Positions 7,248-60,900 of a stretch of DNA of 64,000 nt are shown here, piece after piece. The stretch spans positions 62,394 to 126,393 of the forward strand of contig DFGJ01000021.1 of NCBI GenBank assembly GCA_002372375.1, given 5' to 3'. The stretch is from Ruminococcaceae bacterium UBA3753 (GTDB lineage Bacteria > Bacillota > Clostridia > Oscillospirales > Acutalibacteraceae). The translations under genes were made by a program, and so were the position numbers. Every line of letters begins with the position of its first letter. Position 1 is the stretch's first letter. The notes under the pieces were generated by a model. The model was given only the letters and a program-made list of their open reading frames with translations, searched no databases and was not told the DNA's origin.

Positions 7248-7601
7248 AACCACACACCTCAAAAAATAATTTTCTTCAGTCTTAGACTTAAGATGTTTAA
7301 ATTGCAAATTATTTCAAGTAAAATGTTAATACTTTTATTTTTAAAAAACAAAATCATAAAAAGTCCCATACTTTAACTATTTAGCTAGCAAATAATACTT
7401 ATATGTCATTAACAATCATCCTGTATCTTTATTAAAATAAAAATTGTAGTTTTTAAAATAAATACTAAATAAATATGTCTAACTTGATATTTTAAGGCCT
7501 TACAAAAAATTAAAGACAGAAATTTTCATCATACTGTTGTACAAATTTTAAATTAGAAATTAGCACAACTTTTATTTGTGAATTGGCGAATTTTTAATTT
7601 T

Positions 7602-7982
7602 TTAAAGTATATTTTCTAAGTAAGGCTCCTCCGTTTCTTCTAAACCTTTTATTCTAACCAGAATACTTTTACAAATAGCCAGACTTTGTGAAAATTCGTT
7701 GCTCGCCAAATTGGACTTGAGTTCAGCAAAACTTACATCTATTTCTTCTAAATGACTGTGATCTATAAACCATTTTAATATTTTTTCACTTTTTTCCCAC
7801 TTATTATTGGCAGTATTTATTTCTCTATAGGCAAAGTCTGTTTTTTCTTCAGCTAAAAATTCTAATGCAGAGTCCAAATTTTTTGTAATTTCACTAGTTG
7901 TGTTTTTTAAAAAGAATAAGCTTAGAATACACAAAAAAACAGTAACAGTGAAAATAACCACGGCACATACTGTACGGAACAA
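7602..7982 (-). CDS. DUF4363-like small membrane-anchored protein
   Basis: 126 aa with an N-terminal TM helix and then a helical domain. It lies immediately downstream of a DUF421 gene, a pairing I recall as common in Clostridia. Confidence 0.55.
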   Translation of the reverse strand: MFRTVCAVVIFTVTVFLCILSLFFLKNTTSEITKNLDSALEFLAEEKTDFAYREINTANNKWEKSEKILKWFIDHSHLEEIDVSFAELKSNLASNEFSQSLAICKSILVRIKGLEETEEPYLENIL

Positions 7983-7988
7983 ATCCTT

Positions 7989-8675
7989 TTACATCTCCTT
8001 TTTTATTATGTTGAATTCTTTTTTTGCATTAGCTGTCATAATGAATATATCTTTAAGACACACTTTTTGTTGACATAATGTATCGTCTAGCCATTCTTCA
8101 CTCAATTTACAGACTTTCATACTATCCTTGGCTATTACACCGTCCCTAACAACCACTAGCTCTATTCCGGAATCTTGAGTCTGTATTTTTAACATAGAAG
8201 CATCTGGCTGCTGTTTTTCCGCTTTTTTTATTACACTCAGATTTCCACTTGTCTCGATAATTGCATATTTTACATCCTGGATGCTAGCAACTTCTAATTG
8301 TCTTAGCTGTTCTTCAAGGTCTTCAATACTTATGCGAAGTTCTTTCATCTTTTTTTGGTCTAACTTGCCATCATTTATTAAAAATGCCGGGCTTCCACAA
8401 ACAAATTTATGGAATTTAGCGCTTTTCAACATAATTAAGGATATTATAATCTCAAAGGACATAAGTATAGCAATAGGCACAAGACCGCTGAAGAGTGTAA
8501 TATTACTATTTTGCATCGGGATGGTTGCTATATTAGATATCAGTAAAGTTACAACCAGCTCAGACGTCTGCAATTCACTAATCTGTCGTTTACCCATCAA
8601 CCTTAAGGCTATGGCTACAATAATATAGAGGATCAGAGTGCGAATGACAGAGACAGTCATAAAAAATATCACCAA
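7989..8675 (-). CDS. DUF421 (YetF-like) membrane protein
   Basis: 228 aa. It has three N-terminal TM segments containing MGKRQISELQTSELVVTLLISNIA, then a soluble C-terminal domain. This is the typical DUF421 layout. Confidence 0.7.
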   Translation of the reverse strand: MVIFFMTVSVIRTLILYIIVAIALRLMGKRQISELQTSELVVTLLISNIATIPMQNSNITLFSGLVPIAILMSFEIIISLIMLKSAKFHKFVCGSPAFLINDGKLDQKKMKELRISIEDLEEQLRQLEVASIQDVKYAIIETSGNLSVIKKAEKQQPDASMLKIQTQDSGIELVVVRDGVIAKDSMKVCKLSEEWLDDTLCQQKVCLKDIFIMTANAKKEFNIIKKEM

Positions 8676-8944
8676 ATGTATTATTTCTTTAAAATCGATT
8701 TTTTATTCTCTATTTGCCTTGCTTTGTTTAGGTATCTATTCCATATATTCCTAACTGTCTTCTCGATTATCAATGTTTATTGTGAATCTAAATATTTAAA
8801 GGGTGTGATTAAAATGAGAACCGATAATTATCTTTTTTCTTTCCTTTATCTAAGAAGCAACAGTAGTTTTGTGAGACTAAAAACATAAAAGTGAGTTATA
8901 ATATGCCAGATTAAATTTGTTTTTGTGTTAAAAAGGACTTTGTT

Positions 8945-10618
8945 ATGTACAGGGCTCTTTACAGAAAATGGAGACCTAACAGGTTTTGTGACGTCATTGG
9001 GCAAGAATGCAGTACGGAAATACTGGAAAGTGAAGTCTTGTCCGATAAGATTGGTCATGCTTACCTTTTTATAGGGCCACGGGGTACAGGAAAGACTACA
9101 TGTGCAAGGATCTTTTCAAAAGCAATAAATTGTACTAATAGTGAATCTAGTGAAAAACCGTGTTTCGTTTGTAAGAACTGTACATTGGCAGAAAATGAAA
9201 CACTGCAGGATATAATTGAATTGGATGCTGCAAGTAACAACGGTGTAAATGATATTCGAGAAATATGTGAATCCACACGGTTTACGCCTGTTGTGTGCAA
9301 GTATAAGGTTTACATAATCGATGAAGTTCATATGCTCTCTACGGGTGCTTTTAATGCTCTTTTAAAGACTCTAGAAGAGCCGCCGGACCATGTAGTTTTT
9401 TTATTAGCTACTACCGAAGTAAACAAAATTCCACCTACCATATTATCTCGCTGTCAAAAATTTGAATTTAGAAAAATTTCTGTGGAAAAAATAGCAGAAA
9501 GGTTGATCTTTGTAGCAAATAATGAAAAAATAAATTTAGAAAAAAAAGCTGCCGTTAGTATAGCTGACTGTTCTGATGGTGCCATGAGGGATGCTCTTTC
9601 TATACTGGATAAATGTGCCTCAGTTAGCAATGATGTAACAGAGGAATTAGTTTGTAAAACTTTAATGATTGTTGATGAAGAATCGGTTTTTAAGCTGCTT
9701 GAGTGTATTGTGAACAAAAATTTAAAAGATGCTTTTGTGCAGTTAGCAAACGTAGAATTTTTGTCCGACAGTGTTTCCGATTTGTTTTCCAGACTGATTT
9801 TTATGTTCAGGGATCTAATGATATCAAAATCTGGGGTTGATGTTAGAAATATTACAAATTTAAGTGGAAGTTTGATCGATAAAATAAAAAAAGTATCCAA
9901 TAATATAAGCTTAAGCAGTATTCTTTCAATACTAGATAAATTGCAGGAGTATGCCCAAAAGCTGCCATATGCGCTGGATAAGGAACTTTTATTTCAATCT
10001 GCATTAATAAAAATATGTGAAGATCAGTATCCAAATTCTGGTATCAAACAGGATGTTGCTTGTGAAAGATTGCAGTTGGAGAACAGACTTAGTGTTATAG
10101 AGAATGAACTGAAAAAGGTGCAATCTAGCAAAGAAAGTTTAATTCCAATTAACGAAATGCAATCTGAAAAACGGAGTGTTTCGAATGATGATGCTGTGCA
10201 AACTCAAAAGATAACCAGTGAGAATTTAATAAAAAATGCAAAAAAAATGGAGAATTGGTCAGAGGTTCTAGAAATACTCAAAGGCACATCACGTACTGTA
10301 TACAGCGCTTTTAAAGGTTCAAGTGCGTACATAAGTGATGGTTATGTCCTTATTGATTCTCCAGCAAATTTGGCCTTTGACTTATTAAAAAAATCTGTAC
10401 AAAGAGATAAAATTCGAGATATAATAAAAAAGGTTACGGGAAGGCATTATAGACTTGGTCCTTACAAAAAGCTGGTTGGTTCAGAAGGTGTTGTAGGGAA
10501 GGTTGGGACCTCTCTTGTAGGTACTGGGAGTAATGGTAGTGAGTCAGATCCGCTCAATGTTTTTATCAATAGGGCGAGGGACTTGGGGATTGATGTGGTT
10601 TTAAAAGGCGGAGATTGA
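8945..10618 (+). CDS. dnaX: DNA polymerase III subunit gamma/tau
   Basis: MYRALYRKWRP..F.DVIGQE, Walker A GPRGTGKTT, a Cys-rich zinc module CFVCKNC, DEVHML, and SRCQKFEF. Confidence 0.92.
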   Translation: MYRALYRKWRPNRFCDVIGQECSTEILESEVLSDKIGHAYLFIGPRGTGKTTCARIFSKAINCTNSESSEKPCFVCKNCTLAENETLQDIIELDAASNNGVNDIREICESTRFTPVVCKYKVYIIDEVHMLSTGAFNALLKTLEEPPDHVVFLLATTEVNKIPPTILSRCQKFEFRKISVEKIAERLIFVANNEKINLEKKAAVSIADCSDGAMRDALSILDKCASVSNDVTEELVCKTLMIVDEESVFKLLECIVNKNLKDAFVQLANVEFLSDSVSDLFSRLIFMFRDLMISKSGVDVRNITNLSGSLIDKIKKVSNNISLSSILSILDKLQEYAQKLPYALDKELLFQSALIKICEDQYPNSGIKQDVACERLQLENRLSVIENELKKVQSSKESLIPINEMQSEKRSVSNDDAVQTQKITSENLIKNAKKMENWSEVLEILKGTSRTVYSAFKGSSAYISDGYVLIDSPANLAFDLLKKSVQRDKIRDIIKKVTGRHYRLGPYKKLVGSEGVVGKVGTSLVGTGSNGSESDPLNVFINRARDLGIDVVLKGGD

Positions 10619-10642: not shown

Positions 10643-11002
10643 GTGAAAGCGAATTTGCCAAAAAAGTTTAGGGGTGGTGGGCAAAGTAACCCCCGTGAGG
10701 CCCTTCATCAAGCGCAGGTAATGCAGAAAAAGATGGAAGAATTAATTTCTGAACTTAGTAATAAGGAATATGTGGTTTCGTCTGGTGGGGGTATGATAAA
10801 GGTGACTTTGACCGGGGACATTAAGGTAAAAAGTATAGAAATTGATCCTGAGGTTGTCAACAAGGACGATATATCTATGTTAGAAGATATAGTGGTTGCA
10901 GGAGTTAATGAAGCTATATCTGTGGCGAGGTCCGAGAAAGACAAAGCCCTAGAGGAGCTTTCTGGCTCTGCTGACATTTCTGGTATGTTGGGCATGCTTT
11001 AA
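10643..11002 (+). CDS. ybaB: YbaB/EbfC nucleoid-associated protein
   Basis: 119 aa with a GTG start preceded by GGGAGAG. It has the QAQVMQKKMEE...VSSGGGMIKVTLTGD pattern typical of YbaB and lies directly after dnaX. Confidence 0.9.
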   Translation: MKANLPKKFRGGGQSNPREALHQAQVMQKKMEELISELSNKEYVVSSGGGMIKVTLTGDIKVKSIEIDPEVVNKDDISMLEDIVVAGVNEAISVARSEKDKALEELSGSADISGMLGML

Positions 11003-11049
11003 ATTTGTTTTTTATTTTCAGTTCACTTATAGGTTAGTGATTAGCGTTT

Positions 11050-12010
11050 TTGTTGACTATTTTTTTGCTAAAAGTGGAGGTTGTCCTCTTCTGGGTGTGG
11101 TTGTATCCAAACATAGAGGTTGTTTCTTGTAATGATGTGGCGTTAATGCTCTCTTTTTTGGAATTTTTCAGTTTCTTCGGTTATCTTGAGGAGTTGACAG
11201 TTTTTGTCAAAGACGGACACTGTTGTCTGCGCGGTGTTGGAGCTATTTTTTGAAATGATGCGACATTAATATTCTTGCTTGGAGAATTTTTTGGTTTCCT
11301 CAGTTGTTTTTTTGTGTTGAGGTTTTTTTGTTAAAGACGGACACTGTTGTTTGCGCGGTGCTGGTTGGAGCTGTTTTTTGAAATGATGTAGCATAAATGT
11401 TCGCGCCTGGAAAATTTTTTGGTTTCCCCAGTTGCTTTTTTGTGTTGAGGTTTTTTTGTTAGGTGTGTGCGCTGCTGGCTGCGGGCTTTTGGTTGCAGCC
11501 AAAAGTTAAAGCTATTTTTTTATAATAGTGTAGCATTGATGTTCTCTTTTTCTGAATTTTTCAGTTTCTTCGGTTATCTTGAGGCGTTGATGTTTTTTGT
11601 TAAAGATGGACACTGTTGTCTGCGCGGTGTTGGAGCTCTTTTTTGAAATGATGTGACATTAATATTCTCGCTTGGAGAATTTTTTGGTTTCCCCAGTTGT
11701 TTTTTGGCGTTGATGTTTTTTGTTAAGGATGGACACTGTTGTCTGCGCGGTGTTGGAGCTGTTTTTTGAAATGATGTGACATTAATATTCTCTCTTGGAA
11801 ATTTTTTTGGTTTCCTCAGTTGTTTTTTTGTGTTGAGGTTTTTTTGTTAGGTGTGTGCGCTACTGGCTGCGGGCTGTTGGTTGCGTCTGGCATAGAAGTC
11901 GTTTCTTGTAATAATGTGGCGTTAGCGCTCTCGTTTGAGGAATTGTTCAGTTTTTTCGGTTGCTTTGAATTGATGTCAATGTTTTTTCTATTGTTCTCAA
12001 GATATAAGAA
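11050..12010 (+). repeat. tandem array of ~123-141 bp monomers in a ~390 bp three-unit higher-order repeat (about 7.5 monomers)
   Basis: Unit boundaries fall after 11120, 11244, 11372, 11513, 11637, 11760 and 11900. Units 11121-11513 and 11514-11900 are colinear and highly similar, unit for unit. Confidence 0.9.
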
Positions 12011-12365
12011 TTCGATATATTGAGTTATATTTGCACTGAAAGGCTTTTGCGGGTTTGAATCTCGACTTAGATGCTCCGTATGCAGTCTAGTAAGCTAAGC
12101 TGTGAGTTTAGGCGAGGTTGTGCCTTGGGTTGTGCGCTAGTTCTTCGTTTATTTGTTTTCTTTTTATATAAGTTTAAGTATACTTTGTTTAGTGGTTTTT
12201 TTTTGAAATTCTACGAAACTCCGAAGATTGTTTTCTGTATAAGTGAGTTTTTTGTGTGTTTAAATTGTTGAACGAGCAGGGTTGTGGTAGCTATCTCCGT
12301 TATTTAAAGTTAAAAGTTCAGTTTAGTGGTCAAATTTCAGATTCACATAGTTTTAGGGTTGATGG

Positions 12366-12980
12366 ATGTTAAATATGGGCGAGTATGTAGTTGCATCTCT
12401 TAAAAATTTGGTTGAAAAGCTTAAAATGCTTCCAGGCATAGGCGAAAAATCGGCGCAAAGGTTAGCGTATCATATAATAGGTTTACAAAAAAATGAGATA
12501 AAGTCTTTTGTTGATGCTATTTTAGACGCAAAGACCAAGATTCATTTTTGCAGCATTTGTAAAAATTTAACAGACAGTGAAGTTTGCTCTATATGTTCTG
12601 ATGAGAACCGAGATGGTTCTACTATATGTGTTGTGGAGTCCCCTCAAGATGTTGTATCTTTTGAGAAATCCGGTGGATTTAATTTTAGGTATCATGTTTT
12701 GCATGGGGTGATTTCACCTTTGAATGGTGTAGGTCTTTCTGATATTTACATAGATGCACTTATAAAAAGACTTGAGGCTAACGGTGACGTTAAGGAAGTA
12801 ATAATGGCAACAAATCCGACTATGGAAGGTGAGGCTACGGCGCTTTACATAAAAAAATTACTTAAACGCTTTGATATAAAAGTTACGAGACTGGCCTGTG
12901 GAGTTCCCATCGGCGGTGACCTAGAATATACTGATAAGATGACTCTTATACGAGCACTCGAGGGGCGAAGTAGTATGTAA
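12366..12980 (+). CDS. recR: recombination protein RecR
   Basis: LPGIGEKSAQRLAYH (HhH), the C4 zinc finger CSICKNLTDSEVCSIC, and a Toprim region VVESPQDV...ATNPTMEGEATA. Confidence 0.92.
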   Translation: MLNMGEYVVASLKNLVEKLKMLPGIGEKSAQRLAYHIIGLQKNEIKSFVDAILDAKTKIHFCSICKNLTDSEVCSICSDENRDGSTICVVESPQDVVSFEKSGGFNFRYHVLHGVISPLNGVGLSDIYIDALIKRLEANGDVKEVIMATNPTMEGEATALYIKKLLKRFDIKVTRLACGVPIGGDLEYTDKMTLIRALEGRSSM

Positions 12981-13901
12981 GCATTTTTTGCTGTTTTTTG
13001 AGGAAAGCTGATTTTTGAGAAGTAAGTTATTAAAAATTGCATAAAACACCCCGATTGCTGTCACCCAATTACAGTAACAACCTGGGAAGAGTGGTCTACG
13101 AGTGAATTGCAAGGTGAATCTTCTTTGGCAAAGATAGTTCTAAAAAGATATGAAAAATGGATCATGTTACCATAGAAAGTATAGTGAAAGTAGATGATTA
13201 CTAATAAGGGATTATGTATCGCAGCAATATGGTTGTTTGGAGAGCTCTCAGACTATATTTTTTGTATATACTGTCTAAACGCCCAATTTTCTTGTTCTTT
13301 ACGTGTAGGCAATTCCTCGCGGAACTGTAAGGCAAAAAGATGAGGTTTTTTGTTCTAAAGTGTTCTACCCCGCAGTCTATAACCAAAGTGGTTGCAAACA
13401 TACGTTTCCTAAGATTTAGCAGATAATAATTAAATAATAAGAGGTCTTTATGAATTCTGTGACTTTCTATACCAGCATAACCTTTTTCTCTAAGTTGATC
13501 TACTTCTATTTAAATTTTGCGAAAGGTCGAAATATAAAGATTCGTTACTAGAACTTACACGGATACTTATATTTTACGTACTTCAGTTTAATTGAATATT
13601 CTTACTGTCTCTCAAATAAAAGACACTATGAACAATATATGTATTGATAAAATTGCGGATTTTTCTAATTTTGGCCACCATTAAAAGTAGCATCGAAATC
13701 TAATGAAAGCAAACGAACTATTTCAATAATTATTAGAACTTATTTTCTAAACCGTCAATATAATTAGTCTGGGTTGTTTAGAATTTAACAACTGCACCAG
13801 TATTAGTACGGAAAGTTACATAAAGCAAACAAAATCTTTAAATTTTTGTCGACCAACGTCAGTGTAGCTTAATTATATTTATAATTGAATTCCATAAGCA
13901 T

Positions 13902-15227
13902 TCATTGCTTTTTTGTAAAAAAATTCAATGTTGACGCTATCAAATTTTTGTGCAAATCTACTTTTATTTCTTTTTCAGTGACCGCTTTTATAGAAAAGGC
14001 ACCAAATGTTCCATAATGTTTTTCAGAGTCTTGACCTGTTACGTCAACAAAATCGTTACCAAGTAGTATATAAGATTGATCACTTTTTTCAGTAAAACTT
14101 AGAGCACTGTCTTTACCAACAACTTTGATACAAGGCGAAGAACAGTCTTTACGACCAGCATCTTTTTCGATGGATACTATTATGGCGCCTTTACCAGGTA
14201 AAATTTTTGCTGGAACATCAAGTTTTGCAGTAAAATACCCAGAATAAGGGACGGTACCAGAAGCCAGAGATTGCCACTTACTTTTATCGCTACTGGGCTT
14301 ATTCCCAAAAAAAGATGAGGTGTAGTATATCCTATATACACAACCTTCAGCGTTTGTACCGAGCGTAATCTCTTTTAAGGTCTCATTTTCACCAAAACTA
14401 AATACATTACAAGCCGTCAGATTGTCTTTTTGGCTAAACAGTCCCATATTTCCATATAGATCATGCTGATATATTTTTTCGCAAGGCTTATACTTTCTGA
14501 CATCAGTAAAAGCTGTACATTCATCTAGAACTGTGCTGTATGGGAGCGTTTTATAGTAGTTTTTGGAACTATCAAAGCTATCTTTAACTAGCCAAACTTT
14601 TTTGCTATCATTCCACCCGATCACTGAAACTGCGTGCCGGCCATCGTCACCTTTATAGTGAGTATATATCGCTCCGTATTTATCTATAGCACTTTTAATA
14701 GTATCGATATTGTTTTCAATCTCTGCGATGCCTTTAACTGAACACACAGGTAACATGTTCTTATCTAAGTTAGAAAATTCCTCATCGATCAAACTATAAC
14801 GTTTATCTTTTTCGTAGACAGGACCAGATCCTGAAATAAAATAACCACCAGGTACGGAAAAACTGTCTACACCTTCTTCGATTTTAACATGATATCCTTC
14901 CTCGTGATCATTGCGGTTTGCCCAATTTAACAAATGTTTTTCAGAAAGACTGCCACTTAAAATTCCATTCTTACACATTGCTGTTTCCAAAGCCGATATA
15001 GCAGCAAAAGCCCAACAACTGCCACTGATCAATTGAAATTTTTTGCGTAAACCTTTCTTCATTAATAAACCGAAACACGTTGTTGGAACAACTGATAAAT
15101 GATCTTCGAATTCTTCACGAATAGCACTGCAAAGAACAGAACCGGTTGAAGTCATAAGACTGGAAACGGAACCAAACACACAACTAGCGTAGGCAATAGA
15201 AAATAATGTTTTTTTCGTACTTCGCAT
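13902..15227 (-). CDS. secreted papain-like (C1 family) cysteine peptidase with a C-terminal extension
   Basis: Signal-peptide-like N-terminus. Catalytic Cys context SGSCWAFAAISALE, His context HAVSVIGWND, then WLVKDSF. The ATG at 15227 follows a GGGTGA RBS (the track start at 15236 is GTG). The C-terminal ~200 aa are unassigned. Confidence 0.75.
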   Translation of the reverse strand: MRSTKKTLFSIAYASCVFGSVSSLMTSTGSVLCSAIREEFEDHLSVVPTTCFGLLMKKGLRKKFQLISGSCWAFAAISALETAMCKNGILSGSLSEKHLLNWANRNDHEEGYHVKIEEGVDSFSVPGGYFISGSGPVYEKDKRYSLIDEEFSNLDKNMLPVCSVKGIAEIENNIDTIKSAIDKYGAIYTHYKGDDGRHAVSVIGWNDSKKVWLVKDSFDSSKNYYKTLPYSTVLDECTAFTDVRKYKPCEKIYQHDLYGNMGLFSQKDNLTACNVFSFGENETLKEITLGTNAEGCVYRIYYTSSFFGNKPSSDKSKWQSLASGTVPYSGYFTAKLDVPAKILPGKGAIIVSIEKDAGRKDCSSPCIKVVGKDSALSFTEKSDQSYILLGNDFVDVTGQDSEKHYGTFGAFSIKAVTEKEIKVDLHKNLIASTLNFFTKKQ

Positions 15228-15644
15228 AAAAATCACCCAGCAGTCATTTTATCATGAAAAATAAAAAAAGTAAACAACAACTTATATTTTTAAGTGATAT
15301 TAGGTATATTATACAAATCAGCTTTAAAACTACCCCCCCTAATGCTTATACATCTACCTAAAACACCGAAGTGCGCAAATAAATTTCATCATCTAACACC
15401 AAAAACGAAAACACCTCCACTTGCAATACGAAAAGTACAACACGCACCGTACTACCTGTAAAAATACTTTACCTAAAAACTTGCTTATAACTGGAAAATG
15501 TGCTACACGGAATCAGACAAATTTACGTCCTCTAAAAAGCACTGAAAACTTACATAAAACTGATATAAGTAAAGTCCAGAACAATTCAAATACAAGCAAG
15601 AAAGCTTTGGGCTCAGAATAGCCAATCGAACAAGCAAACATGAG

Positions 15645-17003
15645 CTAGCTAATCAGCCCCGGCGAATAATTTATAACACGCCCACTGCATCCAGGACAAC
15701 CGCCCACTCCGTCACTACCCTGAAAAAACCAATAGTTAGGATTATGCTTCGTACCACGGCCTCCTCTTCCGCCTTCTCCAGGAACAAAGGTACAATTTCC
15801 TTTGTTTAAAACTTTTCCGTGATCCGGTTCAACAAAAAAAACATCTGCACCGTTACCTCCCTTGCCACCATCACCTCCGCTTCCTCCCCATAGAAGAAAG
15901 CCAATGGGCGCATAAGCTATCTCGCCACCCTCACCACCGTCAGACGCCTTAGCTACCAAATTTTCTAAAGTCAAACTTCCACTTAAAACTTTAAACAAAG
16001 GTTTACTGCTAATTCCTGCATACCCTTTTCTAGAAAAAACAGGTCCACTACTACTATCGATGAAAGAAGCTTTCGAAGGGGTAAGACCAACTATTTTTCC
16101 TCGTATATCTCTACCATTACTAAAAATTTTCACTTTCACCGTATCGTCGTATTCATAATATGCTTCCTGCACTTTCTCTTCATACGCTGGCACCAAAACA
16201 TCATAATACCTTGTTTGAGAACTACGTTCATTCGAATCACCGCAAATTTCGGTACTTTTTCCACTATCTGTATAAATACTTTCACTTCTTCTCTCAAACC
16301 TTGGTTTGTGATGAACTGTTTTCTCTCTAAATCTTTTATCTTTTCTACCTACAATTATAGATGCATCTGGGAAAATAGACAAAGTGTGCCCATTTAAATC
16401 TAAGTTTGCTCCATCAGGCAATATAAGGTCATTTGTCACACATATATCATCAACCAGTCTAACATTAATTAAACCTTGTTCATCCTTTTTGCCTTTTTCA
16501 AGTGCATCAACCAAATCAGGATAAGTAGCTACCTTAACATAACTATTCTTATCACAAAAATTCCTCGAATAATCTGTGCCAATACTCTGATCAACACAAG
16601 AATCTACGTTATATACCACGTTGTTATAGTCATTTCTTTTACAAGAACCGCGAGGATAATCTGCACTACTTGACCAATCCATACATGAATTTACATTACG
16701 TACTGAATCGTTATAGTCATTTCTTCTACAAGAACCGCTAGAATAATCTACACTGCTGGACCGATCCACACATGAATTTACATTATGTACTGAATCGTTA
16801 TAGTCGCTTCTCCCACAAAAGTCGCGAGAATAAGCTGCATTGCTGCTGGACTGATTAACACAAGAACTTGCGTTACGTACTGCATCGTTATAGTTATTTC
16901 TTCTACAAGAACCGCGTGAATAATCTGCGCCAACGCCAATACATGAACTTTCCAGAGCAGCGGTAAAGAATGGTATAACAAACAATTTAAAGCCTGCCTT
17001 CAT
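15645..17003 (-). CDS. secreted repeat protein: Cys-pair repeats, a beta-helix-like middle and a Gly-rich tail with RTX-like nonamers
   Basis: Signal-peptide-like N-terminus. About 4.5 repeats of ~29 aa (DYSxGSCRRNDYNDSVRNVNSCxD). LDLNGHTLSI is typical of parallel beta-helix adhesins. GGSGGDGGK-GGNGADVFF fits the GGxGxDxUx pattern. Confidence 0.6.
   Translation of the reverse strand: MKAGFKLFVIPFFTAALESSCIGVGADYSRGSCRRNNYNDAVRNASSCVNQSSSNAAYSRDFCGRSDYNDSVHNVNSCVDRSSSVDYSSGSCRRNDYNDSVRNVNSCMDWSSSADYPRGSCKRNDYNNVVYNVDSCVDQSIGTDYSRNFCDKNSYVKVATYPDLVDALEKGKKDEQGLINVRLVDDICVTNDLILPDGANLDLNGHTLSIFPDASIIVGRKDKRFREKTVHHKPRFERRSESIYTDSGKSTEICGDSNERSSQTRYYDVLVPAYEEKVQEAYYEYDDTVKVKIFSNGRDIRGKIVGLTPSKASFIDSSSGPVFSRKGYAGISSKPLFKVLSGSLTLENLVAKASDGGEGGEIAYAPIGFLLWGGSGGDGGKGGNGADVFFVEPDHGKVLNKGNCTFVPGEGGRGGRGTKHNPNYWFFQGSDGVGGCPGCSGRVINYSPGLIS
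16541..16925 (-). repeat. intragenic tandem repeat, ~87-90 bp x ~4.5
   Basis: The block cgttatagtcatttcttctacaagaaccgc recurs at about 16622, 16709, 16796 and 16885. Confidence 0.85.
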
Positions 17004-24311: not shown

Positions 24312-24950
24312 AAAAAACCCCCTTAAATTGTAATTATTTGTACCGAAAAAATACCGTACCGTTGAAGTTTAAATTAAAACTTTTTAAAGATCCAGTTAAA
24401 ATTTAGTTTTTATGTAGCAATAAGCGAAGTGCAAAACTTCTGCTTTTGTAAGTCAAAATTTTATCTATTTTGCAAATAGAACAAGAAGTAAAACCCTGCA
24501 GTAAAACATATATTTATAAAAACTAACTAAAGCCTCTTCTACGCTCTAAATAATCTTATATATCTAAGACGCAATTGATAATTGACCAACAAAACAAAGA
24601 CCAGACTATAAATTAAGCCCAAATCATTTATATTCTTGTTTTTTATCTTAAAGAAATTAAAACAATAAATCGAAAACGTTCACAATTTCTGAGTTATCTA
24701 TCCCTAAGAAATTCATCGTTGTTAGCTATAATAACATGTTTATATTTATTGCACTGATTAAAATGTTCAGAATGTTCCATGTATGCAGTTAACAAACTTT
24801 TTAGCCTCCCCACTATGATCTACCAATAACGTCCTCAGAGTTGTCCGGAACAAGGTTGTAACCCAAAAACGATAAATTACTCAGTGGTTGTTTTCCAAGT
24901 GCAAAAGCAAAAGACTAAAAGCAGATTATAAGCTGGAGAAGATTGAATAA

Positions 24951-25420
24951 AAGTACGGCAACTTAGAAATTTTAAAGGGGCAATTAGAATCGGTGCTATT
25001 TTACAAAGAAGCCGCATCATTATCTATCAGCTATTTGCACGCTCGATCCTTTCTCTTTCCGCCTGGGGAGGCATTATATAATTTATTTACAAACTTTGAG
25101 CGTCTAAAGTGCGGCAACTTAGAAAATTCAAAAAGACAATTAGAAGTCGGCGCTGCCTTACAAAGAAGCCACATCATTATCTATCAGCTATTTGCACGCT
25201 CAATCCTTTCTCTTTCCGCTTGAGAAGGCCCTATATAATTTATTTACAAACTTTGAGTATCTGAAGTGCGGCAACTTAGAAATTTTAAAGGGGCAATTAG
25301 AATCGGTGCTACCTTACAAGGAAGCCACATCATTGTCTATTAGCTATTTGCACGCTCGATCCTTTCTCTTTCCGCTTGAGAAGGCCTTATATAGTTTATC
25401 TGCAAACTTTGAGCATCTCC
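24951..25420 (-). repeat. tandem array, ~156 bp x 3; the innermost unit contains the last ~26 codons and stop of tsaB
   Basis: Unit starts (aagtRcggcaacttagaaa) are at 24951, 25107 and 25264. The string tatttgcacgctcRatcctttctctttccgc recurs at about 25033, 25190 and 25344, and the tsaB stop is at 25340. Confidence 0.9.
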
Positions 25421-26086
25421 AGCTTCAGTTCCGCTTTCCAAAAGAGTTTTTGCAGCAAATGCGACGCTTCTAGCTAATTGATATTTAAAACCTGAGTGCA
25501 TAATCCTGATATTTTCTGTTTCTTTTTCAAAATTTTTATTTATGAAATTATAAAAAATATCTGCACCATCGCCCAATAGAATTACATCTTTTTCTTTAAA
25601 ATCCTTTATTTTTAAAAACATATCTTGAAAACTAACAGCATTATCTACAGTTATTCTGAATATCTTCCCATCTTTTACGTGAAATAATGCAGCATAAAGC
25701 TGATCTCTTCTAGCGTCCATGCATGTACACACTACCGCATCTTTTTGATCAATAGCGTTAAAGGCCATCGCATACAAAGTAGAAACCCCTAAAGTTTTTT
25801 TATTTAGTGGTAAAGCCATCCCCTTTATCAGTGAAACACCTATGCGTACCCCAGTGAAAGATCCTGGACCATTGCTTACAGCAAATAGATCTATGTCTTT
25901 TACTGAGAATTGAGAGAGGTCCAGCAAACTCTTTACTGTTGGAGCAAGGGTAGTACTATGGACTAATCCGGAATCCAGGTAAATCTCCCCAACTAGTTTT
26001 TCGTCATCTAGTATCGCGCAGGATGCAACCTTAGCACTCGATTCTACTGCTAATATTCTCAAAACCAGATCTTCCTTTATGGGCAA
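25340..26086 (-). CDS. tsaB: tRNA t6A37 biosynthesis protein TsaB
   Basis: ILAVESS..., GPGSFTGVRIGV, and the C-terminal ...IRPSQAERE typical of TsaB. The track start is TTG at 26086. A TTG at 26062 (LRILAVESS) is an alternative. Confidence 0.85.
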   Translation of the reverse strand: MPIKEDLVLRILAVESSAKVASCAILDDEKLVGEIYLDSGLVHSTTLAPTVKSLLDLSQFSVKDIDLFAVSNGPGSFTGVRIGVSLIKGMALPLNKKTLGVSTLYAMAFNAIDQKDAVVCTCMDARRDQLYAALFHVKDGKIFRITVDNAVSFQDMFLKIKDFKEKDVILLGDGADIFYNFINKNFEKETENIRIMHSGFKYQLARSVAFAAKTLLESGTEAGDAQSLQINYIRPSQAERERIERANS

Positions 26087-29551: not shown

Positions 29552-29734
29552 TTTATTCTGATTTTTGAGTATTTTCCGTGGCCGTGGTTTCGTCTTATTC
29601 TGGGAAGCTTCTGCCGCGGTGTTTTTCTGGTATAAAAACAAGATTAACGCATGTATATTTTATTTTGAAGTTAAATACATTAGAACTGAGTCTGTGATAG
29701 GTTGTTTGCAGTTTTTAGAGCTTTTAGGTACGTT

Positions 29735-30320
29735 TAGAAGAAGCAAAGGTTGTGTTCTTTAAAAGGATTTGTTAAATAGGTTTTAGCCTTGACTTGTTAT
29801 AGCAGTAAAGAAACCGATTTATATTTTGGCGCGAATAATGATGTTTTCAATTAGATTCCTTCAGCTTTAATATCTAGTACTTATGAATTCAATACAAATG
29901 TACATCTAACGAATAACAAGGGGGGCGGACCGACTAAAAGAAGCAAAAGTTGTACTCCTTAAAAAGGTTTGTTAAATAGGTTTTAGCCTTGACTTGTTAT
30001 AGCAGTACAAGATCCGATTTATTTTTGGCGCGAATAATGGTGTTTTCAATTAGATTCCTTCAGCTTTAATATCTAGTATTTATGAATTCAATACAAATGT
30101 ACATCTAACGAATGACAATTGGCAGATCGACTAAAAGAAGCAAAAGTTGTACTCCTTAAAAGGGTTTGTTAAATAGGTTTTAGCTTTGACTTGTTATAGC
30201 AGCAAAAAAGCTGATTTGTGTTTTGGTGTAAATAGTGACGGGCTTTTGTTTGGATTTCTTCCGCTTTAATATCTAGTATTTAAATATACGTCTAACGAAT
30301 AACGAGGGGACGGATCGACT
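29735..30320 (+). repeat. tandem array, ~197 bp x 3, upstream of the ABC transporter gene
   Basis: The unit-start motif ctaaaagaagcaaaagttgt is at 29934 and 30131, with a diverged form at 29735. The internal block ggttttagccttgacttgttatagcag recurs in each unit. Confidence 0.9.
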
Positions 30321-38338: not shown

Positions 38339-40420
38339 ATGAAAAGACAGGTATCTTTGGAGAAAACAAGAAATATAGGTATTATGGCTCACATAGATGC
38401 CGGAAAAACTACGACGACAGAAAGAATTTTATTTTATACAGGAGTTAACCACAAAATAGGTGAAACCCATGATGGCGCTGCCACCATGGATTGGATGGAG
38501 CAAGAGCAAGAAAGGGGTATAACTATAACTTCAGCGGCGACAACGTGCTTTTGGAAGCAGCATAGAATTAATATCATAGATACACCAGGTCACGTGGATT
38601 TTACCGTTGAGGTTGAAAGGTCTTTGAGAGTTCTGGATGGGTCTGTTACAGTCCTGTGTGCTAAAGGGGGAGTAGAGCCACAGTCGGAGACTGTCTGGCG
38701 TCAAGCTGACCGCTATAAAGTGCCTAGAATGGTCTATGTGAACAAAATGGATGCTGTGGGAGCTGATTTCTATAATGTTATCCAAATGATGAAGGACCGT
38801 CTACGCTGCAACGCTGTTCCGATTCAATTGCCAATAGGTTCGGATGAAACTTTTAGAGGGATCATAGATCTTGTTGAGATGAAGGCATATATATATAATG
38901 ACGATCTAGGTAAGGACATAACTGTTGAGGAGATACCGCAAGAGCTTGAGGACCGATCGGCTGAATATAGGCGAGAACTTTTAGAGCATGTTGCCGAAAT
39001 GGACGATGCTTTGTTCGAGAAATACTTGAATGATGAAGAAATAACACAGGATGAAATAAAGTCAGCTATTAGAAAAGCGACACTTGCCAATAAGATGGTG
39101 CCTGTAACTTGCGGGAGTTCTTACAAAAATAAAGGTGTTCAAAAGCTTTTAGATGCAATAGTCGATTATATGCCTGCACCAACAGATGTTCCGGCTATAA
39201 AAGGGATAAACCCTGAAACTAACGAGGAATGCGAGCGTCACTCTTCGGACTCTGAGCCGTTTTCAGCTCTGGCTTTTAAAATTGCTACTGACCCTTACGT
39301 AGGTAAGCTATGCTTCTTCAGGGTGTACTCTGGATCTATCAGTGCTGGTACTACTGTTTATAACTCAACTAAAAACAGTAAAGAAAGACTTGGCAGAATT
39401 CTTCAAATGCACGCAAATCATCGGCAAGACATAGATACTGTTTACGCTGGTGACATTGCTGCTGCAGTTGGTTTAAAGAATACTACAACTGGCGATACTC
39501 TTTGTGTGGAATCCAATCCAGTAATTTTAGAGTCTATGGAATTTCCTGAGCCTGTTATTAGGGTGGCCATTGAGCCAAAAACAAAGGCTGGCCAAGAAAA
39601 GATGGGCTTGGCACTTGCCAAGCTTGCCGAGGAGGATCCTACGTTTAAGGCTTACACGGATAAAGAGACCGGGCAGACGATAATTGCTGGAATGGGTGAG
39701 TTGCACCTTGAAATTATCGTGGACAGATTACTGAGAGAATTTAAGGTTGAGGCTAATATTGGTGACCCTCAGGTTGCGTACAAAGAGACCATAAGAGAGA
39801 ATGCTGATGTTGAAAGTAAATATGTCCGTCAGTCTGGCGGTAGAGGGCAGTACGGTCATGTGAAAATAAAAATTTCGCCTAACCCGGCCAAAGGCTATGA
39901 GTTCGTTAATTCTATTGTTGGTGGTGCTATTCCTAAAGAATACATTCCTGCTGTGGATGAAGGTATAAAAAGTGCTATGCAGGCTGGTATTTTAGCAGGA
40001 TATCCGGTTGTGGATGTTAAGGTTGAGTTATACTATGGTTCTTTCCACGAAGTCGACTCATCTGAAATGGCGTTTAAAATAGCGGGATCAATGGCTTTTA
40101 AAGATGCGATGAGCAAAGCTGATCCCGTATTGTTGGAGCCCATAATGAAAGTTAGTGTTACCGTTCCGGAAGAATATATGGGGGATGTTATAGGTGACCT
40201 TAATTCTCGCCGTGGCATGATTCAGGGAATGGAAGCCCTTGCTGGTGCACAAAGAATAAATGCAAATGTTCCTCTGTCTGAAATGTTCGGATATGCTACT
40301 GACATGCGTTCTAAAACTCAAGGTAGGGGACAATACACAATGGAGCCAAGTCATTATGCTGAGGTACCGAAATCTGTTTCGGAAGGAATTATATCCTCAA
40401 GAGTTAAGCCGGCGGGATAG
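38339..40420 (+). CDS. fusA: elongation factor G
   Basis: [38 protein letters not shown] and NKMD, with full-length colinearity to EF-G and the end ...SRVKPAG. Confidence 0.97.
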
Positions 40421-41350
40421 GTTGGCCATACCGCTGGCATGCGTTCTAAAATTTAAGATAAGGCGGAAATACGCAACGTAACCGCGTCACTATGTTAGGG
40501 TACTAAATTCTGTTTTGAAAGAATTGTGTCCTTTAAGAGTGGAGTTGACGGGAAATCGGCCGCCAGTTTGTGCTTTCTTTCCAAGACTTAAGATTTGAAG
40601 TATTATGCTATGAAACTGGGTCAATGTGCTGGGGTACCGAGATCTGTTTCGAGAGTAATTTTGTCCTCAAGAGTTAAATCGACGGTAGCGGTTGTCGGCA
40701 TGTGTACTTCCAGTGTTCGTTCTAAAATTTAGGACTGGGGACAATGCGCAATTTAATTGAGTTACTGTGTTGAGGTACTGGGATATGTTTCGGAAGGAAT
40801 TATATTCTCGAGGGTTAAGCCGGCGGAATAGGTTGCCATACCGCTGGCATGCGTTCTAAAATTTAAGATAGGGCGGAAATACGCAACGTAACCGCGTCAC
40901 TATGTTAGGGTACTGAATTTTGTTTTGAGCGAATTGTGTCCTTAAGAGTGGAGTTGACGGGAAATCGGCCGTCAGTTTGTGCTTTCTTTCCAAGACTTAG
41001 GATTTGGAGTATTATGCTATGGAACTGGGTCACTGTGCTGGAGTACCAAAGTCTGTTTCGAGGGGGATTGTGTCCTCAAGAGTTAAGTTGTTGGTAGCAG
41101 TTGCCGACTTGTGTGCCTTCAGCATGCGTTCCAAAACTTAGGACTAGTACGCAATTTAGTTGAGTTACTATGCTGGGGTACCGAAATCTGTTTCGGAATG
41201 AATTATATCTTCAAGAGTTAAATCGACGGTAGCGGTTGTCGGCATGTGTACTTCCAGTGTTCGTTCTAAAATTTAGGACTGGGGACAATACGCAATTTAA
41301 TTGAGTTACTGTGTTGAGGTACTGGGATCTGTTTCGGAAGGAATAACTTG
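40304..41350 (+). repeat. tandem array of ~132-143 bp units (about 8) seeded by the last ~117 nt of fusA, with higher-order re-duplication
   Basis: Unit starts (atgcgttctaaaa and diverged forms) are at 40304, 40439, 40571, 40713, 40848, 40980, 41123 and 41257. Units 2 and 5 are near identical, as are units 4 and 8. Confidence 0.92.
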
Positions 41351-41536
41351 CTAATTTGTATGTGCCTCCAACAGGCGTTTTTGTTAGTCACGGTTATGTT
41401 AATAGTGCACGTTTTTAATTTGAATACAATGTTTTATTTTTGCTCTTTTCGTAGAGCGCTGGGAGATTTATAAATATTTGGGAATTCTTTGCATCATTGT
41501 TTTGCTTTAGTTTTTGTTTTGCTGTAAGGTGTTTTT

Positions 41537-50330: not shown

Positions 50331-51555
50331 AAGTCCCTAACACTTCACTAAAACATTATTTTTAGATAAACTATAAAATTTCAAAAAACACCCGGAAAAA
50401 TCTCAATGGAAACTGAAAAATTTGCACTACAAAAGGGAACTTACGCAGCCCCACAAGAAACGGGATACTACTCCGCAAGAACATCCCAACCTGTATTTTC
50501 AGACATTACCATCCAAAAAGGAAGAAAAAATCGTCAAAAAACGATCGTGATTTACTTTATAAATGTGCAAAAGATCACGCTGAAAACCTCGCCACGAAAG
50601 TCACCCAAAAATTCCGACAGCGTTCAGCACAAAACCTAACCACAGGTACTCCCCTGAAATAATACTACAAATCTAAAAATTAAGTAAACTTCAGAATCCT
50701 AAAAAACTCCAATCTTACTCGCAACTGCTAAATGTCATCACGAACGCTATTTCTTTAAAGGCTACCCCATGCCTAGTAACAAAACTGAAGCAAGCACAAA
50801 ACACGCACGAAATCTAGGTATACTACTAGAAAAAACACACAACCGTTAAAGCCGCCAAAAAACTATTCACGCTAGCTTTAAAAGAGGTAAAAACGCTAAA
50901 TTACTCGACGTATAACATAAAAATGGTCAAAGGTAATAATGAAAATTTTGGCTTTAAAATAGACGGAACAGAAAACTTAGATGCCGCCCGTATTTCGTGC
51001 AAAAGTAACTCACAAGACACGAATTATCTTTTTCAAAAAAGTTTAGATGATATTACACCTCTGAGCGCCAGAAATCTTTATTCGGTTAGAATTACAGCGC
51101 TACCAGTTTTCCCAAAAAATACAATGCGCCAAAAAGCGGCAACCCAACAATTTTACAAGAAACGCTGTACCAAACCGAACAACCAACAAAAATCGCTATT
51201 CCACTGCTAAGAGCACAAAACTAAAAAACATCGAAATTTAATCCTAACAAATACGCCACAACATGAACGTGCAAACAAACAGAACAACCAATTCACCCTC
51301 AGCTAAACGCTTAATGCTGCTCAGTTCCCTGCCTGACATACTTCACGCCGCTGAACCGAAATGCGCCAATTTATCTACATACCCATGTGTGACTTCTGCA
51401 TGGTACCACAGATATAAGGTGTATGTCAACCAAATAAAGAAGTTTTTGATTAATGCATAAAGGTCAAGCTTTATGGAACGTATTCAGTTTTGCTTGAACT
51501 TGTGTAGTATTTAAAATATAATACATATGTTCGGGAAATGCTTGAGGAATACTCC

Positions 51556-59289: not shown

Positions 59290-60156
59290 TTGTTTTTATT
59301 GAATATGCTTATGGATAAATCCGATATGCAGTTTAATTTGAATCATGTGACGTTTTCCTACAGATTGGGAAGTAGGAAAATTTTAGATGATGTTTCTTTA
59401 AAAATAAAGAAGGGTGAATTCGTTTTTTTGTTAGGAAAAAATGGATCCGGAAAATCTACATTTTTAAAGCATCTTAATGCCATGCTTATACCTACTTCAG
59501 GAGAAATTTATGTTGATGGAAAGGATACAAAACTTGAAAAAAATATTTATAAAATTCGCAAAACAGTAGGGATGATTTTGCAAAATCCTGAAAGTCAAAT
59601 TGTAAACAGTATCGTTGAAGAGGATGTCGCTTTTGGATTAGAAAACATTGCAGAGGATCCTAAAATTATTCAGAAAAGAGTAGACAGCGCTTTACAGGCT
59701 ATTGGTATGCAAACTTATAAAAAGCGGATGATTAATGAGCTATCTGGTGGACAAAGACAGAAGATCGTTATTGCCGGCGTTTTGGCTATGCAACCTGATT
59801 GTATACTCTTAGACGAACCTACTTCTATGCTTGATACTAAAAGCAGGTCAGAAATTTTGCGTATAATATATGATTTAAATAAAAAATTGGGAATCACCGT
59901 CGTTTGGATTACACATAACCTAGAGGAAGTGCAATGCGGGCACAGAATCTTGTTAATGAAGGAAGGTAAAATAGCACTTGATACAACCCCTTCTGAACTT
60001 TTTTATAACGACGAAATACTTAGCAAGTTCGACTTAAAAAGAACAGAATTGGTAGAATTTGTGTGTAATTTAAAAAAGAAAGGTCTCAAAATAAAAGATA
60101 CAACTAATAAAGAAGCGGTAATCGATTTTATATTTAATCAGCTGAGAAAAAACTAA
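59290..60156 (+). CDS. ecfA: energy-coupling factor (ECF) transporter ATPase EcfA
   Basis: GKNGSGKST, QNPESQ, LSGGQRQKIVIAGVLAM, LLDEPTSMLD and ITHNLEE. The start is uncertain, and the ATG at 59326 (MQFNLNHVTFSY) is plausible. No ecfA2 or ecfT follows. Confidence 0.85.
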   Translation: MFLLNMLMDKSDMQFNLNHVTFSYRLGSRKILDDVSLKIKKGEFVFLLGKNGSGKSTFLKHLNAMLIPTSGEIYVDGKDTKLEKNIYKIRKTVGMILQNPESQIVNSIVEEDVAFGLENIAEDPKIIQKRVDSALQAIGMQTYKKRMINELSGGQRQKIVIAGVLAMQPDCILLDEPTSMLDTKSRSEILRIIYDLNKKLGITVVWITHNLEEVQCGHRILLMKEGKIALDTTPSELFYNDEILSKFDLKRTELVEFVCNLKKKGLKIKDTTNKEAVIDFIFNQLRKN

Positions 60157-60204
60157 AGTTATTTTAAAATTAAAATTTGCAAAATTTTTATTACTATGCG
60201 AATT

Positions 60205-60900
60205 ACAAAGTTGTAGACACAAGACATAAGTCCGCACAAAATAAATCAAGCAAATCGAAATATAGTATAAGGGCACACAATTTTTATTTTTGGTGTCCGT
60301 ATAGTTAGCTCCCCCCAAAAAAATTTTGAAAAGTATCGCTGATTAAAACCGCTTTTGACTTTTTAATTGACCAAATTGAGGGTACTTCTTCATTTCTGAT
60401 GTTTTAATCTACAAATCGAATTTTTGAATTATCAAATTATAAATACAAGACATAAGTTCACACAAAATAAGTCAAACAAATCAAAACATAGTACAAAAGT
60501 GCTCTATTTTTATTTTCAGTATCTGTATAGTCAGCCCCCCAAAAAAAATTTTTGAAAAGTATCGCTGTTTCTGACCATTAAAATCGCTTTTGACTTTTTA
60601 ATTGACCAAATTAAGGGTACTTCTTCATTTCCGATGTTTTAATCTACAAATCGAATTTTTGAATTACCAAATTATAAACACAAGACATAAGTCCGCACAA
60701 AATAAATCAAGCAAATCAAAATATAGTATAAAGGCACACCATTTTTATTTTTAGTGCTTGTATAGTTAGCTCCTGAATTTTTGTATAAGTACCACTATTT
60801 TGGCTTATGAAGATAACTTTTAAATTGACCAAAGTTTGGGCACTTTTTTAATTTTTTATATTTTAATCTACATATCTAATTTTTGGATAATTAAACTACA
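60205..60900. repeat. tandem array, ~226-235 bp x 3, between ecfA and the DUF1653 gene
   Basis: acaagacataagt recurs at 60219, 60445 and 60680. The long colinear block ...gcttttgactttttaattgaccaaattRagggtacttcttcatttc appears in each unit. Confidence 0.9.

Follow-up and report, generated by a model that had tools for sequence, protein, structure and literature searches.

A tandem array with a 393-bp higher-order repeat between ybaB and recR in an uncultured lineage of rumen Clostridia

Gene order at the locus and anatomy of the array

A stretch of 64,000 nucleotides from contig DFGJ01000021.1 of Ruminococcaceae bacterium UBA3753 (hereafter the window) was analysed to describe a tandem repeat array that lies between the genes ybaB and recR. 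The window is 100% identical to part of a 136.9-kb scaffold from the rumen-type metagenome ERZ28612953 (ENA). According to the open reading frames (ORFs) and their Pfam domains, the + strand carries dnaX (8945–10618), ybaB (10643–11002), which encodes a YbaB/EbfC nucleoid-associated protein (PF02575, YbaB_DNA_bd, 1.4e-25), and recR (12366–12980), whose product contains the Toprim_4, RecR_HhH, and RecR_C domains. The genes dnaX and ybaB are 24 nt apart, and the gap between ybaB and recR amounts to 1363 bp (11003–12365), the same length as given in an earlier note made from the sequence alone. Judging from homologues of 201 aa, the true start of recR is probably the second ATG at position 12375, which would extend the gap to 1372 bp. 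In 21 distant bacteria, ybaB and recR are typically separated by ~37 nt (median) and never by more than 204; this baseline was drawn from a RecR search of genome contigs that matched only distant phyla at 51% identity or less. Against this bacterial norm, the gap in the window is exceptional, as the earlier note had claimed.

The array extends from ~11047 to 12013 and accounts for ~965 bp of the gap. It is composed of head-to-tail units of 123–142 bp that abut without spacers, and it starts ~45 nt past the ybaB stop codon, following a unique T-rich stretch (11003–11046, + strand) that has no terminator-like hairpin on that strand. Tandem Repeats Finder reported the segment 11201–11849 with a period of 123, 5.1 copies, and a score of 617, and a second repeat search returned seven in-register copies starting at 11112, 11235, 11363, 11505, 11628, 11751, and 11891, with spacings of 123, 128, 142, 123, 123, and 140. 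These are the same units whose ends had previously been placed at 11244, 11372, 11513, 11637, 11760, and 11900, ~9 nt out of phase with our boundaries and each on a ggagct-type motif. When the units were aligned with MAFFT, three subtypes (X, Y, and Z) were recognized in the order X-Y-Z-X-Y-Z-X'. The X units (u1, u4, and u7) have a head of their own, and the Y (u2, u5) and Z (u3, u6) units combine a common head with different tails. The earlier description in terms of two monomer subtypes, A and B, ordered A-A-B, A-A-B, was right about the tail types and their order, but the heads of the "A" monomers differ, which separates them into X and Y.

All units are given here on the + strand. The X-type unit u1 (11112–11234, 123 nt, tail ...GGACACTGTTGTCTGCGCGG) is 82% identical to u4 (11505–11627, 123 nt), which opens the second higher-order copy (11505–11890). 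Likewise, the Y-type units u2 (11235–11362, 128 nt) and u5 (11628–11750, 123 nt) share 88% identity, and the Z-type units u3 (11363–11504, 142 nt) and u6 (11751–11890, 140 nt) share 86%. The long tail of u3, GGTGTGTGCGCTGCTGGCTGCGGGC..., contains a 9-bp hairpin, and u3 is the sole copy with it. At the 3' edge, u7 (11891–12013, ~123 nt) is a degenerate X-type unit that is 79% identical to u1 in an ungapped alignment of 94 nt and has a diverged tail. At the 5' edge, the segment 11047–11111 can be aligned with the second halves of u3 and u6 at marginal significance (tail z ~2.4; 20/24 match, TTTTGTTGAC-TATTTTTTTGCTAAA), which weakly supports a partial Z-type unit reduced to its second half. A partial B unit before the array and a diverged unit after it had been noticed previously, and they correspond to these two edges. 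The remainder of the gap is a non-repeated spacer upstream of recR (12014–12365), which enters the strain and promoter comparisons described below.

The similarity among monomers follows the higher-order period: units one period apart are 82–88% identical, as opposed to only 53–76% for adjacent units. A self-match of 374 nt with 88.5% identity at an offset of 393 shows a 393-bp higher-order repeat in two copies, in line with the ~390 bp estimated before. The array therefore has the features of a higher-order-repeat satellite, i.e., subtypes recurring at a fixed multi-monomer period and higher-order copies more alike than neighbours. At the same time, it has those of a minisatellite or variable-number tandem repeat (VNTR), with direct head-to-tail units well above the 10-bp minimum of that class, a location in non-coding DNA between two coding sequences, and neither protein-coding nor structured-RNA content.

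Strain variants, relatives, and the surrounding genome

Two contigs from sample ERZ1029114 enter the array from opposite sides, L049 from the recR side and L094 from the ybaB side. In L049, whose RecR is 99% identical to that of the window, the order is u2-u3-u4, then a u5/u6 chimera, and then u7, which makes one unit fewer than in the window, u5 being the missing one. The u5/u6 junction is clean, in register, and situated inside a shared 31-nt stretch, and u2-u3-u4 and u6-u7 match the window at 99.2–99.7% identity. In L094, dnaX and ybaB are ~98.5% identical to the window, and the left end of the array reads X-X versus X-Y in the window, with X-type units of 139 and 136 nt that are ~76–85% and 72% identical to u1, respectively. 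The content and order of the units thus appear to differ between strains, within the scope of one variant sample and of short-read assemblies that do not span the array; the exact copy number rests on assemblies of the same kind.

The divergence between the window and L049 is distributed unevenly. It amounts to ~0.4% over 11241–12195 (u2–u7 plus 180 nt of adjoining unique spacer), 14% in a recR-proximal patch of 135 nt (12196–12330), 3% at the third codon positions of recR, and 10% in the downstream spacer (13000–13870), with Fisher p values of 0.007 and 7e-6 for the contrasts. Both the 334 nt to the right of the patch and the 950 nt to its left are 0–0.4% divergent. Such a sharp mosaic at 12196–12330 could be the result of recombination, a chimeric contig, or uneven constraint.

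Regarding the relatives, five rumen lineages with RecR proteins 70–76% identical to that of the window have ybaB–recR gaps of 187, 300, 496, and 801–803 nt, compared to 1363 bp here, and none of the five bears a tandem repeat in that gap. The earlier note, which had proposed this comparison of spacer lengths, described a spacer that splits the gene pair and is filled by the array; the relatives, in which the two genes are already separated by 187–803 nt without any array, speak against the array as the cause of the split. If the array is subtracted, ~400 nt of the gap remain in the window, which is within the range of the relatives. It follows that the pair was uncoupled earlier and clade-wide, and that one sub-lineage acquired the array afterwards.

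Within this genome, the ybaB–recR gap is not exceptional, since the window contains eight other spacers longer than 1 kb (nine in total). ORFs of at least 100 aa cover 60.5% of the window, the stored gene calls for the same scaffold cover ~62%, and the coding fraction of the relatives is ~65–71%, values that point to weak constraint on spacers. The lowest bacterial coding ratio quoted in the summary given by PMC10710844 is ~64%, for Ehrlichia ruminantium; the window, at ~60%, lies at or below that figure despite its sporulation genes. These include spoIIE and sporulation-type sigma factors encoded in the neighbourhood. The nearest named homologues of RecR (~60% identical) and of elongation factor G (EF-G; 84–87%) are listed as 'Oscillospiraceae bacterium', 'Clostridia bacterium', and Caproicibacterium, and by these two proteins the organism is assigned to uncultured Clostridia. 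In the relative represented by contig L101, whose EF-G is 94% identical, another conserved pair, rpsG and fusA, is 2.4 kb apart (7526–10001). A literature search returned nothing on a clade of rumen Clostridia with low coding density or on the genome of Oscillospira guilliermondii.

Five further long-period arrays were identified in the window, with periods of 87, 156, 200, 135/409, and 235 bp, and the unit sequences of the six arrays are mutually unrelated. No long-period array was found in ~59 kb of non-redundant sequence from the relatives. The array downstream of fusA (40307–41385) is composed of 135-bp units with a higher-order period of 409 bp. The final ~130 nt of the fusA coding sequence serve as its first unit, and five downstream units align to them with a mean column identity of 75% (6 copies); from this alignment it can be read as decaying tandem copies of the fusA 3' end. 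It is missing in L101, where similarity to the window ends at the fusA stop codon. The likeness in size between its higher-order block and that of the ybaB–recR array, pointed out in the earlier note, is a coincidence of length, as the sequences are unrelated. Another array (156 bp x 3, 24950–25418) overlaps the last 79 nt of a minus-strand gene of the TsaD family (25340–26086). As both the fusA and the 156-bp arrays include gene 3' ends, local tandem duplication followed by decay is clearly active in this lineage. The start of an array tends to fall within a gene 3' end or to follow one closely, as is the case in four of the five intergenic arrays when those starting 45 nt past ybaB and 44 nt past the gene preceding the 235-bp array are counted.

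The other arrays are situated in diverse contexts. The 235-bp array (x 2.5, 60200–60805) begins 44 nt past a gene encoding an ATP-binding cassette (ABC) ATPase (59290–60156), and the 200-bp array (x 2.7, 29724–30282) is located between a divergently oriented sigma-factor gene and an ABC transporter gene. The 87-bp (29-codon) repeat (x 3.5, 16623–16928) lies inside an ORF of 452 aa without a Pfam match (15645–17003, minus strand), which adjoins a gene for a papain-like peptidase with a lectin-like domain (13902–15236). Downstream of recR, a peptidase C1 gene is found in the window and in the relative L042, and the same place in the relative L044 is occupied by phage-type genes encoding an ERF recombinase, Sipho_Gp157, and a BetR-like protein (9272–10520), which looks like a prophage insertion point. 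L101 also encodes an ATP/ADP translocase of the TLC family (PF03219, 2621–4132), a type of protein typical of energy-parasitic intracellular bacteria; no TLC homologue was detected in the 64-kb window. Additionally, a bacterial small signal recognition particle (SRP) RNA (Rfam RF00169, 46.1 bits) was identified at 51275–51372 on the minus strand, in a 1.2-kb spacer; no other stretch of the + strand is as rich in A+C. This RNA is located far from dnaX, a placement that differs from the Bacillus subtilis arrangement, scRNA-dnaX-yaaK-recR.

Origin of the array and competing explanations

The array was searched for signals of a function at the level of RNA, protein, and DNA. In Rfam 15, the region 10900–12400 matched no family at the gathering threshold, and the best sub-threshold matches (E = 0.64 and 1.9) were to eukaryotic or archaeal families. 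Single units folded no better than shuffles on either strand (z -1.05 to +1.58), the consensus fold of 9 units reached -1.17 kcal/mol without meaningful covariation, and the folding of 12014–12160 in the unique spacer and of 11003–11111 was unremarkable. Promoter-like sites in the array were not enriched (8 versus 6.2 +/- 2.7 expected from shuffles). No intrinsic terminator was predicted on the + strand between ybaB and recR. The units showed no inverted repeats or palindromes, and the array had no AA/TT power at a helical phasing of 10–11 bp, on which basis intrinsic DNA curvature was rejected.

Several known types of element were discarded as well. Small proteins are not a credible content of the array: its three ORFs of 59–67 aa are F-rich, as expected from T-rich DNA, and lack ribosome-binding sites; one of them is broken by a 1-nt deletion at 11175 in L094, and tblastx of the array found nothing. 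The array is not one of clustered regularly interspaced short palindromic repeats (CRISPR), given that the units abut without unique spacers and that there are no cas-like genes among the called neighbours. A dispersed or mobile element, such as a repetitive extragenic palindromic (REP) sequence, a bacterial interspersed mosaic element (BIME), a miniature inverted-repeat transposable element (MITE), or an insertion-sequence remnant, was rejected because the core motif is confined to a single locus and inverted repeats are missing. The core motif was found neither elsewhere in the window nor in metagenome contigs of the Joint Genome Institute (JGI), and the array had no match in phage and plasmid collections.

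In the view that we favour, with a probability of roughly 0.6, slippage or unequal recombination generated the array in situ as a fast-changing, non-coding minisatellite with a higher-order repeat, which is tolerated and has no sequence-specific function. A segment of ~125 bp inside the already enlarged ybaB–recR spacer would have been triplicated, the three copies would have diverged into X, Y, and Z, and the resulting 393-bp trimer would then have been duplicated. Single units would still be gained, lost, or replaced by replication slippage or in-register unequal homologous recombination, and the array would persist under weak selection against intergenic DNA in this uncultured lineage of rumen Clostridia. 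Its main consequence is physical, namely the addition of ~1 kb between ybaB and recR.

Three points weigh against this view. First, multi-k assembly may have collapsed the repeat in L049, in which case the loss of u5 would not be a real allele. Second, the low divergence of the array relative to the spacer and recR could, taken alone, indicate that the array is under purifying selection; a mosaic left by recombination, or chimerism of the metagenome contig, is no less likely an explanation, because the low-divergence block oversteps the array boundary and u1 is highly divergent (15%) in L094. Third, two strains are too few to show neutrality.

The composition of the array bears on whether it is transcribed. 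It consists of 45% T, 26% G, 17% A, and 13% C, and its T+G content of 70.6% is the highest of any kilobase of the window. The T/G richness of the coding strand reported in the earlier note is therefore real and represents the extreme case of the window, but it is a general property of co-directional spacers and not specific to the array: on their sense strand, G exceeds C in 17/18 (p = 1.4e-4) and T exceeds A in 16/18 (p = 1.3e-3). Since the spacers of + and - gene pairs are interleaved along the window, the bias follows the direction of transcription and not a single direction of replication. During transcription, the non-template strand undergoes excess C-to-T deamination, and such a composition would be expected of DNA that is transcribed and only weakly constrained. 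The asymmetry suggests that the spacers comprise long transcribed untranslated regions, and sense transcripts probably run through the array itself, which would then belong to a trailer of dnaX-ybaB or a leader of recR, considering that no terminator is predicted and that the strand bias is linked to the direction of transcription.

The region upstream of recR adds to this picture. An extended -10 box located 50–65 nt upstream of recR is conserved in the relatives, with the sequence TGTTAGAAT in L092 (~271–279) and L095 (~10806–10814), TGTTATAAT in L042 (~9943–9951), and TATAAT in L047. Its counterpart in the window is degenerate (TAGGGT, 12354–12359), and ~35 nt of the leader are missing. The ancestral recR promoter may thus be defunct in the window, in which case recR expression may require transcripts initiated further upstream, which could cross the array.

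These observations are also the starting point of the alternative that survives best, although we consider it unlikely, in which the spacer is a transcribed regulatory element. The array would be part of a long untranslated RNA (ybaB trailer or recR leader), and its length or copy number would tune the transcription that reaches recR, for example because a long G/U-rich RNA without translation causes polarity or because an RNA-binding protein attaches to it. The degenerate -10 box and shortened leader are the main argument in its favour, and it also agrees with the lack of a predicted + strand intrinsic terminator, with the G>C and T>A asymmetry of the sense strand that tracks the direction of transcription, and with the near identity of the array in two strains. 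Against it stand the lack of conserved secondary structure, covariation, and Rfam matches, the relatives that manage without the array, and the variation in unit order at the left end between strains. Moreover, the sense RNA contains only 13% C, and C-poor RNA is a poor substrate for Rho, as is generally known of rut sites. GGA motifs, counted by eye, number ~16 versus ~11 expected from composition and are not clearly enriched.

A function at the DNA level, in which the array would act as a binding platform for a nucleoid-associated or chromosome-organising protein, appears improbable. The regular spacing of the units, the adjacent gene for the nucleoid protein YbaB, and the high sequence identity between the two strains fit this proposal, and Sannino et al. 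2023 (PMC10756260) speculate that DNA-organising proteins bind the repeat blocks of giant bacteria. However, the six arrays of the window have no sequence in common and hence no common binding site, the units lack palindromes, inverted repeats, and A-tract phasing, the relatives do without the array, and nothing indicates a large or polyploid organism.

The source of the first unit is a separate matter. The earlier note had proposed that the array was seeded by a duplication of the ybaB 3' end, on the grounds that ggagct, tgacatt, and ttcagtt occur both in the ybaB tail and in the units; the presence of gene 3' ends in other arrays of the window (the fusA tail and the gene at 25340–26086) gives this idea some background. 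Nevertheless, when the ybaB tail (10900–11002) was aligned to the seven units, as that note had suggested, the scores were no better than those of dinucleotide shuffles (z -1.1 to 0.0), which contrasts with the 75% column identity at fusA; a ybaB-derived array comparable to the one at fusA was rejected on this basis. The array also begins 45 nt beyond the stop codon, and a competing weak lead comes from the recR-proximal side, so that seeding by ybaB is very hard to credit. This lead is found in L042 and the near-identical L044: in 20 kb of L042 searched on both strands, the best match of the X-type units was the 160 nt just upstream of recR (64% identity over ~110 nt; score 28 versus 23 for the next locus, 1024 windows), and L044 behaved likewise. 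For the Z-type units, the ybaB–recR spacer of L095 was near the top of the ranking. A profile of the units searched with nhmmer against the relatives gave nothing at E < 10 and did not confirm the L042/L044 match. An amplification of the units from ancestral spacer sequence is plausible as an unproven lead.

Finally, an assembly artefact, in which a metagenome assembler stitched strain variants together or collapsed or expanded repeats, is the least credible of these explanations: the scaffold is a short-read metagenome assembly whose exact copy number is not verifiable, and other assemblies break inside the array, among them two Logan contigs (SRR5322920), whose breaks at 11190 and 11832 are what a repeat would be expected to cause, but the flanks of those contigs are 100% identical to the window, three independent assemblies agree in their units and unit order wherever they overlap, and the units differ by 12–47%, too much to be stitched strain variants of one locus.

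Significance and comparison with known systems

Considered alone, the array is another bacterial VNTR, which could serve as a strain marker and which warns of breaks in short-read assemblies at such loci. It also illustrates that a gene pair ranking among the tightest in bacteria may be separated by 1.4 kb with both genes kept. The surrounding sparse, satellite-forming genome architecture is more noteworthy than the single array: it points to a clade of uncultured rumen Clostridia that equals obligate intracellular bacteria in its low coding density and in which higher-order satellites seem to be born from local sequence. A broader hypothesis, which we put forward tentatively, is that the array is one product of genome-wide satellite formation in an undescribed lineage of rumen Clostridia, in which kilobase spacers split conserved operons (ybaB–recR here and rpsG–fusA in the relative L101). 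It is possible, though doubtful at present, that within this genome-wide picture the spacers of one sub-lineage fill with higher-order satellites of 87–409 bp derived from local sequence, including gene 3' ends. If true, satellite dynamics resembling those of eukaryotes would occur in a spore-forming Firmicute, with a possible tie to a host-dependent lifestyle (a TLC-type translocase is encoded in a close relative) or to extreme polyploidy, and transcription of the arrays could influence the expression of genes downstream, recR among them. Should the picture of the clade hold genome-wide, it would offer a free-living or gut-associated Firmicute model for genome compactness and operon organisation under relaxed constraint.

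When compared to known repeat systems, the internal order of the array recalls the higher-order satellites of eukaryotes. In alpha satellite DNA, monomers of distinct subtypes return at a constant multi-monomer spacing, and the higher-order copies resemble each other more closely than adjacent monomers do. The array of the window shares the subtype order and the fixed multi-monomer period, but it is ~1 kb long instead of megabases, resides in a bacterial chromosome, and shows no evidence of a centromere-like role. Among bacteria, giant species carry intergenic repeat blocks, such as the 18/21-bp blocks of Ca. Epulopiscium viviparus and the TAACTGA repeats of Beggiatoaceae (PMC10756260, PMC4679880), and the Epulopiscium genome is 92% coding (PMC10756260). 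The window resembles them in its many intergenic blocks of imperfect direct repeats, with unit sequences that differ from block to block. It differs in unit length, 87–409 bp as opposed to 7–21 bp in the giant bacteria, and in its coding fraction of ~60%, far from the high value of Epulopiscium.

The intergenic repeats VNTR-141 and VNTR-105 of Wolbachia, with periods of 141 and 105 bp, are closer in scale, and their copy number ranges from 0.8 to 7.3 among strains (Riegler et al. 2012, PMC3287509). Their periods are 98–99% identical within and between strains, whereas copy number and internal deletions vary, and slipped-strand mispairing is held responsible (PMC3287509). Similarly, u2–u7 of the window are ~99.5% identical between strains that appear to differ in unit content. 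The Wolbachia periods, which are near-identical within an array, contain hairpins of 23 bp as well as short direct repeats in their interior (PMC3287509). In contrast, the units of the window are 53–88% identical to each other, are organized in a higher-order repeat, and have no conserved hairpin.

The genome of E. ruminantium provides the other parallel. As summarised in PMC10710844 from Collins et al. 2005 and Frutos et al. 2006, its coding fraction is ~64% with long intergenic regions, and its non-coding tandem repeats expand and contract between strains. The lineage of the window shares with it a low coding ratio (~60% here) that stems from long intergenic regions, along with non-coding tandem repeats. 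The units added or removed in E. ruminantium are reportedly ~150 bp long, near the 123–142 bp found here. The organisms themselves are very different, E. ruminantium being an obligate intracellular alphaproteobacterium with a genome of 1.3–1.5 Mb, and the lineage of the window belonging to rumen Clostridia (Oscillospiraceae-like) that keep sporulation genes and display a higher-order repeat of three subtypes. Strain variability of the window array is drawn from one variant sample. With these differences in mind, the non-coding repeats of E. ruminantium and VNTR-141/VNTR-105 of Wolbachia are the closest known cases.

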